NCBI GenBank assembly: GCA_051117555.1
Contig: JBNPEG010000218.1
Location: forward strand, 1-15,074
Direction: 5' to 3'
Origin: Elainellaceae cyanobacterium
GTDB taxonomy: Bacteria; Cyanobacteriota; Cyanobacteriia; CAZCXK01
DNA: 15,074 bases
Shown in pieces: positions 2,618-12,250 of the stretch (position 1 is its first letter; every line of letters begins with the position of its first letter). A model generated the notes under the pieces. The model did not search any database, was not told the origin of the DNA, and saw only the letters and a program-made list of their open reading frames with translations. A program made the position numbers and the translations under genes.

Positions 2618-5600
2618 CTATGCGCTGAAGTACTTCGCGACGGGGTGATGGACGACGATCGCCGTCGTAGACTGCTCGGGGTAAAGCTGTTCGCTTTCAT
2701 CCATGACTAAATCAATGCGCGCCGTATCGAGCAGATCTAGCAGGGTATATTGGTCTTGAATATTCGGACATGCTGGATACCCAAAGCTATAGCGCGATCC
2801 ACGATAGCGTTGCGCCAGCACATCACGAATCGTGTCGGGTTCTTCATCTCCAAAACCTAGCTCATGCCGAATGCGCGTATGAATCCATTCAGCCAACGCC
2901 TCTGCTATTTGAACGGCAAGCCCGTGGAAGTAGAGATAGTCAGTGTATTGATCCGACTCAAATAGTTGTTTGGCAACCTTAGTAGCAACATGCCCCACCG
3001 TTACAGCCTGCATGGGAAAGACATCGATCTGCTCAGAGCCTTTGGGAGCAAAGAAATCAGCAATGCAAAGCCGCCGCAAAGACTTTTGCCGGGGGAAGTT
3101 GAACGTGGCGATCGCCCCTGGTTGAGAATCGACTTGAATGGGCATTGCATCCGGATCATAAAGGTAGAGCGTATTGCCCTCAGCCTGACACGGAAAGTAA
3201 CCGTAAATGATTTGCGGATGCAGCAGATTTTCGGTCACGATGCGCTGTTTCCATTCGTCGAGAATGGGATAGACCTTCTCAGCGAGAAAAGCATCGTAGT
3301 CTTCACGAGACTGTCCTTTGGGTTTGCGGAATTGCCACTGACCTGCAATCAAAGCTTGTAGGTCAAGGTATGCAAACACCTCCTCCATCGGAATGTCATC
3401 AGGGTTGAGAATTTTTGTACCCCAAAAGGGTGGAGTGGGGCGATCGATATCGATGGCAACTGCCTCAGAACGCCTCGTATCCTCGGCATGAACCGTGGAG
3501 GGGTGGGCAGGAGAAGCGGATTCGTCAGACTCTTGAGTGGCTGAAAGAGTAGAGGTGGCTGATTTCTTCTGACGCTCAGCCGCTTTGCCATCGTCATGCT
3601 CACCTAGCGCTTCATCGGGTACTTCATTGGATACTTTATCCGGTACTTCATCGGGTACTTCATCAGATACTTCATCGGGTACTTCATCTAAGAAGCCCTT
3701 GAGATTGTCCCAGGCGTTGCTTGCCTTGGCGGGCATCAGCTTATCCATAAAATTGAGATCCGCAAAGGCATCTTTGCCGTAGACCAATTTGCCATTGTAA
3801 ACATTCTGACAGTCTTCATAGACAAACTTCGGCGTCAGGGCTGCCCCTCCCAAAATCACCGGCACCGTGATGCCTCGTTCGTTGAAGACCTGCAAATTTT
3901 CTTTCATGAAGGCAGTCGACTTCACCAATAGACCGCTCATTGCGATGCAGTCGGCGTTGTGTTCAAAGTAGGCATCGATGATGGTGTCAACGGGCTGTTT
4001 GATGCCGAGGTTAATCACCTTATAGCCGTTGTTAGACAGAATAATATCAACCAAATTTTTGCCAATATCGTGAACGTCACCCTTCACGGTGGCAATTAAG
4101 AAGATTCCCTTTGAACTATTCGAATCCTGCTTATCCATGTAGGGTTCTAAGTAGGCGACTGCCGACTTCATCGTTTCAGCAGACTGAAGCACAAACGGAA
4201 GCTGCATTTGTCCGGCACCGAATAAATCGCCCACGGTCTTCATGCCGTCTAGTAAGAAGGTATTGATGATTTCCAGAGGCGGATATTGGTCTAGGGCTTG
4301 AGTTAGGGTCTCCTCCAGACCTTGCCGCTCGCCGTCGATGATGTGGAGTTTGAGTCGCTCCTCTAGGGGAAGATGTTGGGTAGCAGTGCGATCGCGCTTC
4401 GTTGAAACCCCTTCAAAGAGTTGCGTCAGCTCGGTTAGGGGATCATAGGTACAGATGTTATTTTCATCGTATCGACGGCGATCGTAGATTAGATCCCGGC
4501 ATAGGTCTTGATGGGCGGGGTCAATTTTGGCAAGCGGCAGAATCTTTGCCGCGCTGACAATCGCGGCATCTAGGCCGACCTGCGTTGCTTCATGCAGAAA
4601 CATCGAGTTGAGCGCGATCCGGGCGGCTGGGTTTAGACCAAACGAGACATTAGACACTCCCAAAACAATGTGAACACCAGGAAGCTGCTCTCGAATGTGG
4701 CGAATCGCTTCAATCGTTTCTCGACCGTTGACGCGGTCTTCTTCGATGCCTGTGGAGATGGGCAACGCAAGCGGATCATAGAAGATCTCGTAAGGCGGAA
4801 TGCCATGCTCGACAATATCTCGATAGGCGCGTTGGGCGATCGCCACCTTTCGTTCTGCCGTTCGTGCCATGCCGTCTTCGTCAATGGTGCCAACAACAAC
4901 GCCTGCACCATATTTTTTCGCGAGGTCTAACACCTCAAAAAATCGCTCGTCGCCGTCTTCATAGTTGGTGGAGTTAAGAATGCACTTGCCGCCCGCCACC
5001 TTTAGACCAGCTTCCATTTTCTGCCAGTCGGTCGAGTCGAGCATGAGCGGGATCGTGGCGTTGGTCACCAGGCGTGATACGACTTCTCTCATGTCATGGA
5101 CGCCGTCTCGCCCCACATAATCGACGTTGACATCTAAGACGTGGGCGCCCTCTTTCACCTGAGACTTTGCCAAAGACACCAGCCCATCCCAATCCTCGGC
5201 ATTTAACATTTCGCGGCATTTTTTAGAGCCGCTGGCATTGAGCCGTTCTCCAATAATCAGGAAGGAATTATCTTGATCGTAGGGCTGAGCCGAATAGATG
5301 GACGCGGCAGATGGAACATACTGCAACGGCTCGCGCACCGTTGTGGAGGCAGATGCTGGATTCACGGATGAGTCATCCAATGAATCATAATAGGCCGACG
5401 AGATGCGGACGGGGCGGGTTTTGGGAGTGAGCTCTCTCGAAATGTCTGCGAGGTGTTGAATGTGGTCGGGGCGCGTTCCGCAGCAGCCACCAATCACCTG
5501 CACGCCCAAATCTTCCACAAAGTGCATCAATGCCATGCGCAGCTCCATCGGAGTCAGCTTGTAGTGAGCATGTCCTCCAACGTTTTCGGGAATGCCTGCA

Positions 5601-7249: not shown

Positions 7250-8233
7250 ATGCGGCGACTTTCGTTCATCGGTCTACTGATCGGATTTGCCATCTTAACG
7301 GCGTTGGTCATCCGAGAAGGACTCGATATTCTCGACCAAATTCTTGACGAGATTGGTTGGCAAATTCTTTGGTTACCTGTGTTTTATACGGTGCCTATTC
7401 TTTGCGCGATCGCCTCGTGGTGGTGGCTGTTCGAACCTAGAAAGCATCCTTCGTTTCGATTTAGCACCTACTCAGTCTGGATTAGCTTTGCGATTAATTG
7501 GCTGTTACCCGTTGGGCAAGTCGGGGGAGAAATTGTTCGCGCTCGGATGCTGATTAAGCGCCAGTTTCCTAAAGGTGAGGCGATCGCCACGGTAGTCGGA
7601 GATCAAACGCTGCAAGTGGCCACTCAAGCTGTTTATACGCTCGTCGGCTTTTTGCTGTTTGCCTATACTCAGCTTGGAGACGGCACCGCCAATCTGCAAC
7701 TCTTGCTGGCCGTGCTCATTGGCATTGTGATTTTCGCGGCAGCTAGCTCCCTGTTGTATTGGCTGCAACACGCGGGGCTATTCAAACTGTTCGCTCGAAT
7801 TGCCAAACGCTTTCCAATGGTGCGCGCTGACGAACCCCTCGAAGCCGGAGCTGCAAAGATAGATGCTGCCCTCAAACGCATGTATCGTCGGCGCGATCGC
7901 CTCCTGGTTGCTGCCCTGTGGCGCTTAGCCTTTCGCGTCACGGCGGCTGGAGAGACGTGGCTTGCGTTCTATTTTTTGGGGCGACCGATCACGATATTAG
8001 ACGCACTGATTTTGGAGAGCATTGGGCAAGCCATTCGCTCGGCAGCGTTTTTTATTCCGAGCGGATTGGGGGCTCAAGAAGGAGCGATTGTATTAGTTGG
8101 GAGTGCGTTAGGAATTCCGTCAGGGGTGGCGTTGGCATCGTCGTTGTGCAAACGAGTTAGAGAACTGGTGATCGGCATACCAGGGCTAATAGCATGGCAG
8201 CTCGAAGAAGGCAAACGAGCATTGGGGCCGTGA
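7250..8233 (+). CDS. HpnL-like integral membrane protein (lysylphosphatidylglycerol synthase TM / flippase-like family)
   Basis: Multiple hydrophobic segments and family motifs 'INWLLPVGQVGGEIVRARML' and 'ESIGQAIRSAAFFIPSGLGAQEG...ALASSLCKRVREL..GIPGLIAWQ'. ATG at 7250 preferred over TTG at 7217. Confidence 0.8.
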   Translation: MRRLSFIGLLIGFAILTALVIREGLDILDQILDEIGWQILWLPVFYTVPILCAIASWWWLFEPRKHPSFRFSTYSVWISFAINWLLPVGQVGGEIVRARMLIKRQFPKGEAIATVVGDQTLQVATQAVYTLVGFLLFAYTQLGDGTANLQLLLAVLIGIVIFAAASSLLYWLQHAGLFKLFARIAKRFPMVRADEPLEAGAAKIDAALKRMYRRRDRLLVAALWRLAFRVTAAGETWLAFYFLGRPITILDALILESIGQAIRSAAFFIPSGLGAQEGAIVLVGSALGIPSGVALASSLCKRVRELVIGIPGLIAWQLEEGKRALGP

Positions 8234-8300
8234 CTTTGAAACGAAAGTCACCCAGAATGGAGAATCGGCTAGACAGCCTCGAACCAGAGCCGAAGACTTA

Positions 8301-8401
8301 TACCAATTCTCGATTTTGGATTTGCGATTTTGGATTGACGGTCATCAGCCTTGCAAGGATTATAGCCTGTTCATTTGTAGCCTTACTTTGAAGAATTGGT
8401 A
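8301..8401. mobile_element. MITE-like element, 101 bp
   Basis: Perfect 10-bp terminal inverted repeats TACCAATTCT (8301-8310) / AGAATTGGTA (8392-8401), flanked on both sides by TTA (8298-8300, 8402-8404). No credible coding capacity. Confidence 0.7.
8312..8339. repeat. STRR-like heptamer tandem (GATTTTG/GATTTGC)
   Basis: gattttg-gatttgc-gattttg-gattgac; the reverse complement is the cyanobacterial CAAAATC-type short tandem repeat. Confidence 0.75.
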
Positions 8402-8586
8402 TTATTCGGTAGCCAACGTCTATCAAATGCCGGATGAATTAGGCAGAGATCGGATGTTAGAGTGCGATCGCCATCTTTGTTTACGTCCGTGTTTACATCC
8501 ATTCATAGGGGTCGAGAGCAGGCGCGATCGCCATCTCACCCTGTTGGATCTACGTCATGTAATCCCAATTTTTCTTACTTGCATCC

Positions 8587-9162
8587 ATGACTGCACACAT
8601 TCGATCCATTACGCTGGCCGAATTTCTAAAATTGCCAGAAACCAAACCTGCTAATGAATATTTTGAGGGACAAATTTATCAGCGGGGTATTCCCCAAGGC
8701 AAGCACAGCACGCTTCAATCTCGGTTGGTCAACACTATCAATGCAGCAGGGTTTCCAAATCGAGTTGCCTATGCCTTTCCAGAGCTACGCTGTACCTTGG
8801 GCGGACGATCCATCGTTCCGGATGTAGCGGTATTTCAATGGGCTCATATCCCCTTCGATGTGGACGGGGAAATCGCCAATATATTCGAGCGGGCTCCCGA
8901 TTGGATGATTGAAATTTTTCTGCCGGATCAATCTCCCACTCGCATGATCGACAATATCGCGTTTTCTGTCAGTCAGGGCACCCAGGTCGGTTGGCTGATT
9001 GACCCCGATGAAAAAGCGGTTGTGTGCTTTCAGCCCAATCAGGCTCCTCACGTAAAACGCCGCGCTGACGAATCCTTACCCGTTCCCAATTTTCTCAATT
9101 TAGAACTGACTGTTGGGCGAGTGTTTGATTGGTTAAAGCTAGGCGAAGGAATGCGCACTTAA
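8587..9162 (+). CDS. Uma2 family (DUF820) putative restriction endonuclease-like protein
   Basis: 'ITLAEFLKLPETKPANEY', 'PQGKHSTLQ', 'AFPELRCT.GGRSIVPDVAVF', 'APDWMIEI', 'GWLIDPDE'. The 191-aa length is typical for the family. Confidence 0.93.
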   Translation: MTAHIRSITLAEFLKLPETKPANEYFEGQIYQRGIPQGKHSTLQSRLVNTINAAGFPNRVAYAFPELRCTLGGRSIVPDVAVFQWAHIPFDVDGEIANIFERAPDWMIEIFLPDQSPTRMIDNIAFSVSQGTQVGWLIDPDEKAVVCFQPNQAPHVKRRADESLPVPNFLNLELTVGRVFDWLKLGEGMRT

Positions 9163-10205
9163 CTTTCTCTCAGTGTTCCGCAGTGCGTTGAGACGTCCTG
9201 GGTGGGGGTGCGGGTCAGCAAACCGCGCCGTTGATAGTCGCAAATCGCATCGGCAAGAGACTCGCGCAACGGGCGAAAGGTCAGCCCTAGCTCTGTTTGG
9301 GCTTTGGTGGTGTCAAATTGTAGGGGCGATCGCGCCAGTTTGACACCGGTAAGCGGGGCGGACGGCGCTTTCTGGGTCACGTAATCAGCGATGAATTCTT
9401 GGATGAAACTCACTGTAAACGCCAGCCAGTAAGGAATCTGACGCGTCGGCATGGGCAGCCCGGTCAGCTCTTCAAGAATTTCGAGCAGGTCGCCAAGCCG
9501 GAGGTTGGCATTGCCTAAGATATATCGCTCGCCGGGTTTGCCCTTCTCGGCAGCTAACAGGTGCCCCAGCGCAACATCGCGCGCATCGATGATATTGAGG
9601 GTGCTGTTGAGATAGGCGGGATAGGTGCCATTGAGAAAGCCCAGCATCATGCGAGTGGGTGGCGTAATGCGGCGATCGCCCGGTCCAATGGGCACCGTGG
9701 GATTCACAATCACCACGGGCAACCCCTTTTGAGCGGCTGCAAATGCCTCTTGTTCGGCAACAAATTTGCCTCGGCAATAGGCACCTGCCATGTCGTCGAG
9801 ACTGAGCCTCACCGATTCGTCAGTCGGGTGGTTATCGGATGAACGGCGCACGCTCTTGAGAATCGACTCGGTGGAGCAGTGCACCACCCGATCAACGCCT
9901 GCATCCATCGCCGCGTTCATCACGTTGCGCGTCCCCGTTTGGTTGATGGAGATAAATTCATCTTTGCGCGGCGACCACAGCCCCGCATTCGCCGCTAGAT
10001 GAAAGACCTGATCGATTCCATGCGTGGCGGCGTCCACCGTCGAGCGATCGGTGATGTCGCCCTGCACATAGTCTACTCCGTCTAGGGGCGGGTCAGGAGG
10101 TGCCAAATCGAGAATGCGCACCGCATCCCCCCGTTCTCGCAGCAGCATGACGATATGTTGACCAATAAATCCTGACCCTCCTGTAACCAGACACCGCTTG
10201 CTCAT
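9159..10205 (-). CDS. NAD-dependent epimerase/dehydratase, HpnA-like (hopanoid-associated sugar epimerase / DFR-like extended SDR)
   Basis: Rossmann 'VTGGSGFIG', 'VFHLAA', catalytic YxxxK 'YCRGK', and HpnA-type 'VIVNPTVPIGPGDRRITPPTRM', 'DARDVALGHLLAAEKGKPGERYILG', 'KAQTELG'. Confidence 0.85.
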   Translation of the reverse strand: MSKRCLVTGGSGFIGQHIVMLLRERGDAVRILDLAPPDPPLDGVDYVQGDITDRSTVDAATHGIDQVFHLAANAGLWSPRKDEFISINQTGTRNVMNAAMDAGVDRVVHCSTESILKSVRRSSDNHPTDESVRLSLDDMAGAYCRGKFVAEQEAFAAAQKGLPVVIVNPTVPIGPGDRRITPPTRMMLGFLNGTYPAYLNSTLNIIDARDVALGHLLAAEKGKPGERYILGNANLRLGDLLEILEELTGLPMPTRQIPYWLAFTVSFIQEFIADYVTQKAPSAPLTGVKLARSPLQFDTTKAQTELGLTFRPLRESLADAICDYQRRGLLTRTPTQDVSTHCGTLRES

Positions 10206-10253
10206 GATGTGCTCATCCGTGAATGCTTACTGATCGTATCAGGTGAGCCCATT

Positions 10254-10267
10254 GGGGCGATCGCCCC
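10254..10267. promoter_or_regulatory. 14-bp perfect palindrome (extended HIP1) in the divergent promoter region
   Basis: GGGGCGATCGCCCC near the middle of the 123-bp gap between the hpnA-like gene and the sulfotransferase. Confidence 0.3.
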
Positions 10268-10328
10268 TTCAGCATTTCATGGTGTAATGATTGAAGCCTT
10301 ATCATGTCACAGGGGTCACGATTGAGCC

Positions 10329-11489
10329 ATGTCTCCCGCACCGTCTAACCCAGCAACCCCTCGACTGCTGCATCCCTTGATGGGAGCCGACATTCAAACC
10401 CTTTTGCAGGTGCTCAGCGCCAATGGTGGCATCCCGCTCCGCTGCTGGCCGCACGTCTCGTTGGCGATCGCCACCTCCCTCGCCCGTCTGCCCATCACAG
10501 CGGTTGAGCGATTGCGGGTCGCTCAGCTTCGTCAACGCCATGCCATTAATCAGTCGGATCGGGCGGGTCGAGCGAGTCAGTCCCTTCATCAGCCTCCCGT
10601 CTTTGTCGTGGGACACTGGCGCAGTGGAACGACATTTCTCTACGAGCTGCTTTGTCAGTCGCCTCAATTTGCCTATGTGTCTCCGTTTGCCGTCGGCTTG
10701 CCCTGGGAATTTCTCACCCTAACTGAGCTGATGCGCCCGGTTTTAGAACGAGCCCTGCCGCGCGATCGCTTCATTGATTCAATGCAGGTCAACCCTGACT
10801 CGCCCCAAGAAGATGAAATTGGGCTTGCCAATATGCAGCCCGTATCTTTCTATCACGGGCTCTACTTTCCGGCTCGGTTGCGAGAACATTTCAATGCAGG
10901 AATCTTCTTCGATGGCTGTAGCCCAGAGCAGATTGAAACTTGGCAACGCGTCACCCGCCTCTTTTTTGAGAAAATTCAGCTTGAGCAACCTGGAAAACAG
11001 CTTCTGATCAAAAACCCGGTCTACACGGCGCGGGTGGCGATGCTGCGAGATATGTTTCCCGATGCCAAGTTTATTCACATTTACCGTAATCCTTACATTG
11101 TCTTTCAATCGACGCGCAATTTTTATTGGAAACTCTTCAAAGAGCTTGCGCTACAGCCGTTTGAGAATGCCCCCGTCGATGATTTGATTCTCGATAGCTA
11201 TCCTCGCATGATGGACAGGGTGCTAAAGGAAACGGCTGATCTGCCGGATCATCAATATGTTGAACTACGATTTGAAACCTTTGAAACCGACCCCATTAGC
11301 CATCTTCAGCACATCTACCACACCCTTGAAATTGAGGGATTTGATCAGGTAAAACCTAGATTTGAACGCTATCTCGACTCTAAAAAGCAGTATCGCAAAA
11401 ATCGCTATCAGTTTCCTGAGGCAGATAATCAGAGAGTGACGCAAAAATGGCGATCGCTCATTGAGCACTGGGGCTATGCGCCTCCTTGA
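10329..11489 (+). CDS. PAPS-dependent sulfotransferase (Sulfotransfer_3; resembles mycobacterial Stf3 lipid sulfotransferase)
   Basis: 5'-PSB loop 'PVFVVGHWRSGTTFLYELL' and 3'-PB 'FIHIYRNPYIVFQST', plus 'PQEDE', 'LIKNP', 'LRFETFETDP', 'YRKNRY' and C-terminal 'WGY'. Confidence 0.9.
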   Translation: MSPAPSNPATPRLLHPLMGADIQTLLQVLSANGGIPLRCWPHVSLAIATSLARLPITAVERLRVAQLRQRHAINQSDRAGRASQSLHQPPVFVVGHWRSGTTFLYELLCQSPQFAYVSPFAVGLPWEFLTLTELMRPVLERALPRDRFIDSMQVNPDSPQEDEIGLANMQPVSFYHGLYFPARLREHFNAGIFFDGCSPEQIETWQRVTRLFFEKIQLEQPGKQLLIKNPVYTARVAMLRDMFPDAKFIHIYRNPYIVFQSTRNFYWKLFKELALQPFENAPVDDLILDSYPRMMDRVLKETADLPDHQYVELRFETFETDPISHLQHIYHTLEIEGFDQVKPRFERYLDSKKQYRKNRYQFPEADNQRVTQKWRSLIEHWGYAPP

Positions 11490-11520: not shown

Positions 11521-12066
11521 TCAAAATGCATCGATCGCCCCTTTCACTACCTCAGCAATTTTGGCTCGCTGCTCTGCGTCATAGCCCCATTTGTCTAGAA
11601 ATGCCTGATATTCACCTGTTCCTGTAGCTGCGCTTTCGTGCAATTGCTGAGCCAGCTCACTCAGATGGGGGATCTTTAAGGTTTCGATGAGATGAACCGT
11701 GCGCGATCGCACCCGATCTGATCCCTGCGCCATATCGTCGTTATTGTTGCGTCGATGGGCGATCGCCATTGCAGTCGACATAGCTACGTTTTTGACCAGC
11801 AGCTCGGCTACCGTATCGGGCGATGATTGCAACCCTTGAACCACGCCATTAGAGGGCTGATCGGCGAAGGAACGATCGTCGGTGAGGTAGGTGACAAAAA
11901 ACCCGCGTGCGCCGTTTTGAGTGTGGACTAACGAGGCGATCGCCTCCTGAATCTGAGCATCTGACAAGGTGCCCGCGTCCATTTGCTGCATCAATGTCTG
12001 GGTAAGGGCGATCGCCTGTTCAAAGGTGACATCATCTGGAACCGAAAATGCAACTGCTTCTGCCAT
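11521..12066 (-). CDS. Conserved cyanobacterial hypothetical protein (helical)
   Basis: Motifs 'TFEQAI..TQ', 'NGARGFFVTYLT', 'LLVKNVAMSTAM...H', 'YQAFLDKWGYDAEQ'. ATG at 12066 (MAEAVAF) preferred over 12144. Confidence 0.8.
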   Translation of the reverse strand: MAEAVAFSVPDDVTFEQAIALTQTLMQQMDAGTLSDAQIQEAIASLVHTQNGARGFFVTYLTDDRSFADQPSNGVVQGLQSSPDTVAELLVKNVAMSTAMAIAHRRNNNDDMAQGSDRVRSRTVHLIETLKIPHLSELAQQLHESAATGTGEYQAFLDKWGYDAEQRAKIAEVVKGAIDAF

Positions 12067-12250
12067 CGTTTCTCTAAAACCCGTTGTTGCCGATGATAGC
12101 ATTCCTGTTGGGAAGGGGCTTTTAGCCCTCTGCCATAGGTGCATTACGCTGGCGCAACAGCACTCTACTCCTGCCTTCTGCCCTCCGCCGCTATCTACTA
12201 AATTTTGGTTCTGTGTCGATTAATCCATACATCGGTACTACAATGACCAC

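Follow-up and report, generated by a model that had tools for sequence, protein, structure and literature searches.

Which lipid would accept the sulfate from a sulfotransferase whose gene stands beside two genes named after hopanoid biosynthesis? The question is raised by a 15,074-nt stretch of DNA from an Elainellaceae cyanobacterium (GCA_051117555.1, contig JBNPEG010000218.1, here called the window), which is an entire contig of a genome that is 100% complete (G000, the host; G and L numbers denote comparison genomes and loci, and G002 belongs to the same genus as the host). Positions 7250 to 11489 encode an HpnL-like membrane protein, an HpnA-like short-chain dehydrogenase/reductase (SDR) and a sulfotransferase that depends on 3'-phosphoadenosine-5'-phosphosulfate (PAPS). 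We propose that this trio is probably a hopanoid-tailoring branch, predicted to sulfate the ribose-derived side chain of C35 hopanoids and so to yield an anionic membrane lipid. The hopanoid interpretation, although drawn from sequence comparison, is well supported by comparative genomics. The features of the locus are as follows.

7250..8233, plus strand: hpnL-like gene, 327 aa from ATG; TIGR03476 and PF03706
8587..9162, plus strand: Uma2 putative restriction-endonuclease-like gene, PF05685; bystander
9159..10205, minus strand: HpnA-like extended SDR ("HpnA2", our own label); best family TIGR03466
10206..10328, no strand: divergent intergenic region of 123 bp; presumed shared promoter region
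10329..11489, plus strand: PAPS-dependent sulfotransferase, 386 aa, PF13469; predicted hopanoid side-chain sulfotransferase

The initial annotation of this DNA had described three genes within 4.2 kb, with the SDR and sulfotransferase genes divergent across 123 bp. All of the open reading frames (ORFs) were confirmed at the coordinates above and the gap is exactly 123 bp long; the adjacency of the three genes stands, except that the Uma2 gene between hpnL and the SDR had been overlooked. This gene overlaps the SDR stop by 4 bp. It survives only as a 3' remnant in G002, for which reason we regard it as a bystander, and it is missing from the trios of G003 and of the gammaproteobacterium Litchfieldella; the remnant and the absence from the G003 trio rule it out as a member of the module. 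Since the strands alternate (hpnL plus, SDR minus, sulfotransferase plus), the trio is not a single operon. Gene order and orientation are the same in G002, G003 and Litchfieldella, thus the grouping is not a matter of chance.

The sulfotransferase call is borne out by the family score (106 bits against PF13469, Sulfotransfer_3, with a cut-off of 27), the PAPS-binding motifs and the fold, which all agree. The 5'-PSB-type motif GHWR[S/G]GTT lies at residues 95-102, and G95-R98 and G100-T102 are invariant in 28 aligned rows, as are residues R253 and S261 of the 3'-PB motif. The structure model has a pLDDT of 90.9 and its best fold matches are mycobacterial STF9 and STF1. The nearest relative is 92% identical and carries an Elainellaceae label; the host genome has 12 PF13469 matches in all. 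A Bacteroides finegoldii protein shows 30% identity over 374 aa (full-length, E 6e-54) and sits in a cysQ-SLC13-cysC-cysD-cysN-ST cluster; we infer from synteny that it is the orthologue of B. thetaiotaomicron BT_0416, which makes this cholesterol sulfotransferase the nearest characterised relative among those compared. The name "Stf3-like" comes from the labels that JGI gives to relatives, some of which are called menaquinone sulfotransferase, and no P450 (the CYP128-type partner of Stf3) was found in the window or among the annotated neighbours of the clade loci.

Is the enzyme tied to hopanoid genes more closely than its family at large? Trees were built with FastTree from 132 rows and with IQ-TREE from 38 chosen rows without a mixture model, after removal of rows shorter than 300 aa (L118 among them). 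The clade of the window enzyme is strongly supported in both (100 in the 132-row tree, 100/99 in the 38-row tree), and the window branch joins the hpn-embedded copies of Litchfieldella and Leptolyngbya with moderate support (81/90). Core hpn genes, with hpnL and the SDR not counted, occur at 20 out of 47 clade loci vs 2 out of 85 other loci of the family. When only loci of at least 8 kb are counted, the numbers are 20 out of 41 and 1 out of 48. Although many rows are kin, about seven separate branches show the hopanoid link. Two distant paralogues outside the clade (31-34% identity; L145:1131-3746 and L037) also lie by hpnH/hpnG or hpnG/hpnO-like genes, and the link to hopanoids may therefore have arisen more than once.

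Outside the cyanobacteria, 151 alphaproteobacterial genomes around Hyphococcus luteus were examined. The sulfotransferase is present in 76, hpnH in 77 and both in 74, that is, hpnH accompanies 74 of the 76 sulfotransferase carriers vs 3 of the 75 non-carriers. Where the two genes share a contig, they are no more than 20 kb apart in 50 out of 52 cases. The genes usually run in the order sulfotransferase-propeller-SDR-hpnB-hpnCDE-(shc)-hpnG-hpnH, and in Hyphococcus and its relatives (Parvularculaceae) the sulfotransferase sits inside a full hpn cluster. As a side observation, the Hyphococcus luteus genome (L103, G062:C15:26453-28282) has shc above cut-off together with the full hpn cluster; the genus is listed among those without shc in the accessible text of PMC12583986. 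Seven plasmid records of the Azospirillum brasilense/argentinense group carry the sulfotransferase about 1 kb from the SDR. In A. brasilense Sp7 the block reads SDR-hpnM-sulfotransferase-propeller (lactonase)-hpnN-shc-hpnG-hpnH, its genes being labelled by BLAST to references annotated in other loci. Neither the Parvularculaceae loci nor those of A. brasilense showed an hpnL. Litchfieldella qijiaojingensis has the trio, its orientation unchanged, within a full hpn cluster that also contains squalene synthase-like, shc, hpnM, hpnN, mevalonate, hpnH and hpnG genes. Only 1 out of 100 other genomes of its relatives matched, at 36%, so this type of cluster is sporadic there. The mevalonate set joined to the cluster (L252 / L030) includes an HMG-CoA reductase-mevalonate kinase fusion.

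Among 61 cyanobacterial genomes, 8 including the host carry the sulfotransferase at 56% identity or higher, and 2 more have distant paralogues only. A close SDR (at least 58%) is found in 7 out of the 8 carriers, hpnL in 6 and shc in all 8, vs 33 out of 61 genomes with shc overall; all six HpnL-positive genomes also have shc. All three genes stand together in G000, G002 and G003, while the SDR and sulfotransferase genes still form a divergent pair in G013, G039 and G054. The hpnL gene is unlinked in G013, G039 and G060, and it was not found with the window query in G054 and G058. In the latter genome (Leptolyngbya BC1307) the sulfotransferase gene comes immediately after hpnH, and a canonical hpnA and an hpnG-like gene lie close by. 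In a larger set of 401 cyanobacterial genomes, 12 match the sulfotransferase profile, 9 of them strongly (E<1e-150); TIGR03476 HpnL occurs in 8 of the 401, and all 8 are among the 9 strong carriers. Six of the nine belong to one genus, Microcystis (named from cluster members), and the Microcystis proteins belong to clusters of 386-613 members. At the Microcystis loci examined the order is aminotransferase (HpnO according to one source)-sulfotransferase-hpnL-like (L113:6504-10058, L246:8526-12330 and L248:9571-12096, the next cyanobacterium included). Two Microcystis genomes were tested: shc is present, no HpnA match was found at E<=1e-50, and HpnO stands in place of the SDR. A second cyanobacterium carries an hpnO-like-sulfotransferase pair, and this pairing is a candidate for a sulfated aminohopanoid or a sulfamate.

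Every carrier tested has shc: 8/8 above, 5/5 in another set (one shared with the 8) and 3/3 orthologue carriers. The initial annotation had proposed two checks, linkage of the trio across genomes and co-occurrence with shc, hpnH and hpnG. Linkage of the full trio was found in cyanobacteria and Litchfieldella, and co-occurrence of the sulfotransferase with hopanoid genes in these and in alphaproteobacteria. Its idea of a lipid-tailoring module stands in the hopanoid version, with linkage kept and shc in all carriers tested; it does not stand as a fixed trio, since hpnL is unlinked or was not found in several carriers and Microcystis has HpnO where the SDR would be.

The hopanoid version would also fail in a host lacking shc. 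This host has shc and hpnH above cut-off, the latter beside a squalene-synthase-like gene, and an hpnB gene that adjoins an hpnG-like phosphorylase gene; it also encodes an APS (adenosine 5'-phosphosulfate) kinase for PAPS. Of the known tailoring enzymes, HpnI reached at best 43 bits in the host vs a cut-off of 310, HpnJ gave no match at E<=1e-20, an HpnO orthologue was not found (31% at best with an HpnO-type query) and HpnN and HpnM queries had no match. The HpnL-like protein, a single copy in the host genome, scores 277.8 bits against TIGR03476, well above the cut-off of 195.65, as expected of the HpnL-like membrane protein first proposed, and also matches PF03706. It is a multi-pass membrane protein of the LPG_synthase_TM/flippase-like type and had no match among solved structures in a PDB profile search. 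The function of HpnL is not established according to the accessible text of PMC12324291 and PMC12583986; we predict a flippase or handler of a polar hopanoid.

The SDR needs a finer assignment. TIGR03466 (HpnA) is its best family, at 351 bits just below the cut-off of 367.65, and the protein is the best HpnA match in the host genome. Its sulfotransferase-linked relatives score 242-358, whereas a canonical cyanobacterial copy (L089) scores 442. The "HpnA-like" label therefore holds at family level, but the protein falls below the cut-off and belongs to a separate, NAD-type sister clade, that is, it is a non-canonical HpnA. In a quick tree this clade of 25 rows (24 sulfotransferase-linked SDRs and the G060 copy) has an SH-aLRT (approximate likelihood ratio test) support of 98, and the canonical set of cyanobacterial and proteobacterial HpnA has 97. 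The catalytic and cofactor motifs of the window SDR are intact, with the Rossmann motif TGGSGFIG (TGxxGxxG), Ser111, YxxxK at 143-147 (Tyr143/Lys147) and Asp33. Strand beta-2 ends in an Asp (Asp33 in the window SDR) in 25 out of 25 clade rows, while all 27 canonical HpnA proteins have a hydrophobic residue in this column followed by Arg in the next. In SDRs generally, such an Asp goes with NAD(H) and such an Arg with NADP(H). The two HpnA clades would by this rule differ in their predicted cofactors, NAD(H) for HpnA2 and NADP(H) for canonical HpnA. Each of 32 matching genomes has one SDR match at E<=1e-40, so that in this set the two types replace each other.

What the SDR does to the side chain can be narrowed somewhat. 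Its best PDB match is 3wj7, which we take to be an NADPH-dependent aldehyde reductase of Gluconobacter. It would set the redox state of C35, and we give oxidation to ribonylhopane (lactone or acid) about an even chance; reduction to bacteriohopanetetrol is a less probable role and epimerisation the least probable of the three. Oxidation is favoured because alphaproteobacterial carriers pair HpnA2 with a paraoxonase-like lactonase. This unannotated propeller matches serum paraoxonase 1 (PON1) at E 2e-19, retains motifs that presumably are the calcium ligands of paraoxonase 1, has a lipoprotein-type signal on some copies, and is kept between the sulfotransferase and the SDR in alphaproteobacterial hpn clusters (L029:11118-12200, L234:8835-9977, L264:16038-17207). 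A diverged HpnL was considered for this gene and ruled out by the lack of similarity, the 0-1 hydrophobic segments and the PON1-like match instead. Ribonylhopane is a described compound and no enzyme is named for its formation in the accessible text of PMC4263297. A dehydrogenase together with a lactonase would fit the oxidation of ribosylhopane to ribonylhopane.

Taken together, the proposed branch would run in four steps. HpnH and HpnG would make ribosylhopane; the NAD-type HpnA2 would set the C35 redox state; the cytoplasmic sulfotransferase would move sulfate from PAPS to a side-chain hydroxyl; and HpnL would take the now charged lipid over the inner membrane, by flipping it or handing it on. 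Because the partner of the enzyme changes with the host (HpnA2, canonical HpnA or HpnO), the sulfate may go to a hydroxyl at C32-C34 or to the terminal heteroatom. An HpnI-like match was found in 0 out of 8 sulfotransferase carriers vs 16 out of 25 other shc-positive cyanobacteria, and in 0 out of 18 carriers of another set (two of them plasmid records only, one of these carotenoid-linked) with a search that works on known hpnI carriers. From this distribution, sulfation seems to be another way of supplying a head group, in place of the sugars of the HpnI/J/K route. A bolder picture is less likely than not: sulfated bacteriohopanepolyols would be a real, widespread and so far unseen class of anionic lipids that replace sugar head groups in Microcystis, Parvularculaceae, A. 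brasilense and filamentous cyanobacteria, HpnA2 the missing NAD-dependent ribosylhopane dehydrogenase, the paraoxonase-like lipoprotein the ribonylhopane lactonase and HpnL the polar-hopanoid flippase, with products that standard surveys miss, hence the apparent stop at adenosylhopane in Sp7. The methods text of the hopanoid survey that covered A. brasilense Sp7 names no ion polarity; the survey was reportedly run in positive ion mode. Adenosylhopane only and no Rohmer products are given for this strain in the accessible text of PMC12583986; the profile fits an unseen downstream product and, equally, a low pathway flux.

Several observations weigh against a sulfated hopanoid side chain. The trio contig of the host differs from those of shc, hpnH and hpnG, and the paraoxonase-like lactonase was not found in the host genome. 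There is no core hpn gene beyond hpnL or the SDR at 27 out of 47 clade loci, six close cyanobacterial orthologues (L021-L025, L090) have no hpn neighbour at all, several of them near contig ends, and the counts come largely from related genomes (Parvularculaceae, Microcystis) that are not independent, so that significance tests are overstated by kinship. No sulfated hopanoid was found in the accessible literature, which leaves most subscription hopanoid chemistry outside its reach, nor in the accessible part of the 63-compound alphaproteobacterial survey (PMC12583986), and "sulf" is absent from the main text of PMC12324291 so far as accessible. Three clade members (Azospirillum oryzae, A. ramasamyi and Palleronia) end C30-carotenoid operons of the order desaturase-desaturase-acyltransferase-glycosyltransferase (GT2)-sulfotransferase (L265:6955-13083, L273:902-7113, L270:1010-7080; L270 has a squalene/phytoene synthase and was not counted as hpn-linked), where they are candidates for making sulfated C30 carotenoid glycosides. 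Because of these three, clade membership alone does not fix the substrate, and the most fitting description of the clade is one of isoprenoid-lipid sulfotransferases, most of them hopanoid-linked. Could the window enzyme itself act on another isoprenoid lipid (a quinone, as Stf3 does, or a carotenoid glycoside), with the hopanoid neighbourhood reflecting a shared squalene/isoprenoid supply? The carotenoid operons and the JGI name menaquinone sulfotransferase for some relatives speak for it, but in the tree the carotenoid-linked rows split off as a subgroup on long branches, the window enzyme groups with the hpn-embedded copies, and it is accompanied by partner genes for the side chain (hpnH, hpnG, hpnO), not just by squalene genes. 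The host moreover has no close match to the carotenoid operon genes (desaturases 24-27%, no acyltransferase match), and we consider this substrate unlikely. The same partners, with HpnA2 and the lactonase, are side-chain or predicted side-chain enzymes, which argues against a sulfate on the C30 core (the diplopterol hydroxyl or a ring-hydroxylated hopanoid, by analogy with the Bacteroides enzyme on the sterol 3-OH). The characterised relative BT_0416 sulfates cholesterol and its syntenic counterpart is the 30% match above; no recurrent ring hydroxylase is seen among the annotated neighbours, and we rate a core sulfate as very unlikely.

Sulfate might also be transient, serving as a leaving group for ring closure to anhydro-hopanoids or, after formation of a C35 acid, for a decarboxylative elimination that shortens the side chain. 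Fold neighbours include olefin-synthase and curacin sulfotransferase domains and retinol dehydratase, whose chemistry is presumably of the leaving-group kind, and the NAD-type SDR with the PON1-like lactonase would supply a beta-hydroxy acid. These structural similarities are low (TMq 0.31-0.38) and come after STF9 and STF1 in the ranking, pairing with HpnO or canonical HpnA would yield no C35 acid, and Sp7 showed no anhydro product next to its adenosylhopane, which together make transient sulfation quite unlikely. The initial annotation had also allowed a glycolipid or a sphingolipid-like product, in which case the SDR would be a ceramide-type reductase or a sugar epimerase. Two sequences resembling 8-amino-7-oxononanoate synthase (AONS) or Spt do occur in the host, one as the terminal domain of a 2696-aa polyketide synthase (G000:C132:13543-21630, L274) and one as a stand-alone gene (G000:C54:54574-55698, L275); they mark a possible sphingolipid-like or amino-lipid route elsewhere in the host. 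The 12 PF13469 matches in the host also speak for such a product, as does the fold family of HpnL, which handles phospholipids and sugars elsewhere (PMC12324291, accessible text). However, the AONS genes are on other contigs, no ceramide gene appears among the annotated neighbours of the clade loci (no systematic ceramide-gene search was made) and co-occurrence follows hpnH almost exactly. This product finds no support in the gene neighbourhoods, and we judge it highly improbable. Finally, the alternating strands, the Uma2 gene in between and the broken linkage in several close cyanobacteria would be expected if the three genes were unrelated neighbours. The trio in the same orientation in a gammaproteobacterium, the matching clades of SDR and sulfotransferase and the near-exact co-occurrence leave next to no room for that explanation.

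How does the predicted hopanoid side-chain sulfation compare with known systems? BT_0416 (BtSULT) of B. thetaiotaomicron makes cholesterol sulfate, as shown by expression, purification and deletion (PMC9417993, accessible text). It shares with the window enzyme the Sulfotransfer_3 family, the PAPS donor and an acceptor of the polycyclic triterpenoid type; it differs in that it sulfates a host sterol and has its own PAPS genes adjoining, whereas the window enzyme belongs to a separate, hpn-tied clade with a predicted self-made lipid. Stf3 (Rv2267c) of Mycobacterium tuberculosis makes the sulfomenaquinone S881 from a hydroxylated isoprenoid acceptor (PMC6469627, accessible text). It too is a lipid sulfotransferase, one whose name JGI gives to relatives of the window enzyme, and the nearest folds are mycobacterial; unlike Stf3, the window clade has no P450 or menaquinone context among its annotated neighbours and a predicted hopanoid substrate. 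In canonical side-chain tailoring HpnI, HpnK and HpnJ lead to the glucosamine and cyclitol ether forms and HpnO to aminotriol (PMC12583986, PMC12324291 and PMC5862535, accessible text); the window locus shares with it the upstream pathway, the gene clusters and, through HpnL, the family TIGR03476. The C30 (staphyloxanthin-type) carotenoid operons of Azospirillum and Palleronia have a sulfotransferase of the same clade in an isoprenoid lipid context, but with desaturases, an acyltransferase and a GT2 as partners. A five-gene cyanobacterial co-occurrence module of HpnA, HpnB, shc, HpnH and a phosphorylase has been described, without a sulfotransferase in it (PMC5862535, accessible text), and a 2025 study gives hpnA, hpnB and hpnL as lacking an established function and noted no additional candidates around the clusters that it studied (PMC12583986, accessible text).

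The remainder of the window adds little to the module. Its flanks are unrelated (fasciclin, DUF4336, a MetH-like ORF recognised by sequence, ruvB, TPR and WD40). The MetH-like ORF (1248 aa, minus strand) has a short acidic Val-Pro-Asp-Glu-type repeat insertion at approximately 3590-3690, within the linker that precedes its C-terminal domain. A 207-aa ORF at 11521-12144 on the minus strand converges on the sulfotransferase gene; it has no Pfam or NCBIfam match and is a neighbour only in the same genus. A promoter and terminator scan of the region gave hits at chance level (5 vs 4.9 expected and 2 vs 5.5 expected), and no sigma-70-like site was called within the 123-bp divergent gap. Base composition gave no clear signal of lateral transfer, with GC at third codon positions (GC3) of 0.54-0.64 vs 0.40-0.60 in the other window genes.

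We observed two things that are new: an SDR clade, HpnA2, distinct from canonical HpnA, and the lack of any HpnI match in the carriers tested. For hopanoids, which are major membrane lipids and serve widely as biomarkers, the locus predicts a new head-group chemistry, and it would link HpnL of cyanobacteria with sulfation. Among the carriers are a cyanobacterium that forms blooms and a plant-associated bacterium amenable to genetics. If the prediction is true, a sulfated pool would alter the reading of hopanoid inventories and of sulfur-bearing hopanoids in sediments.

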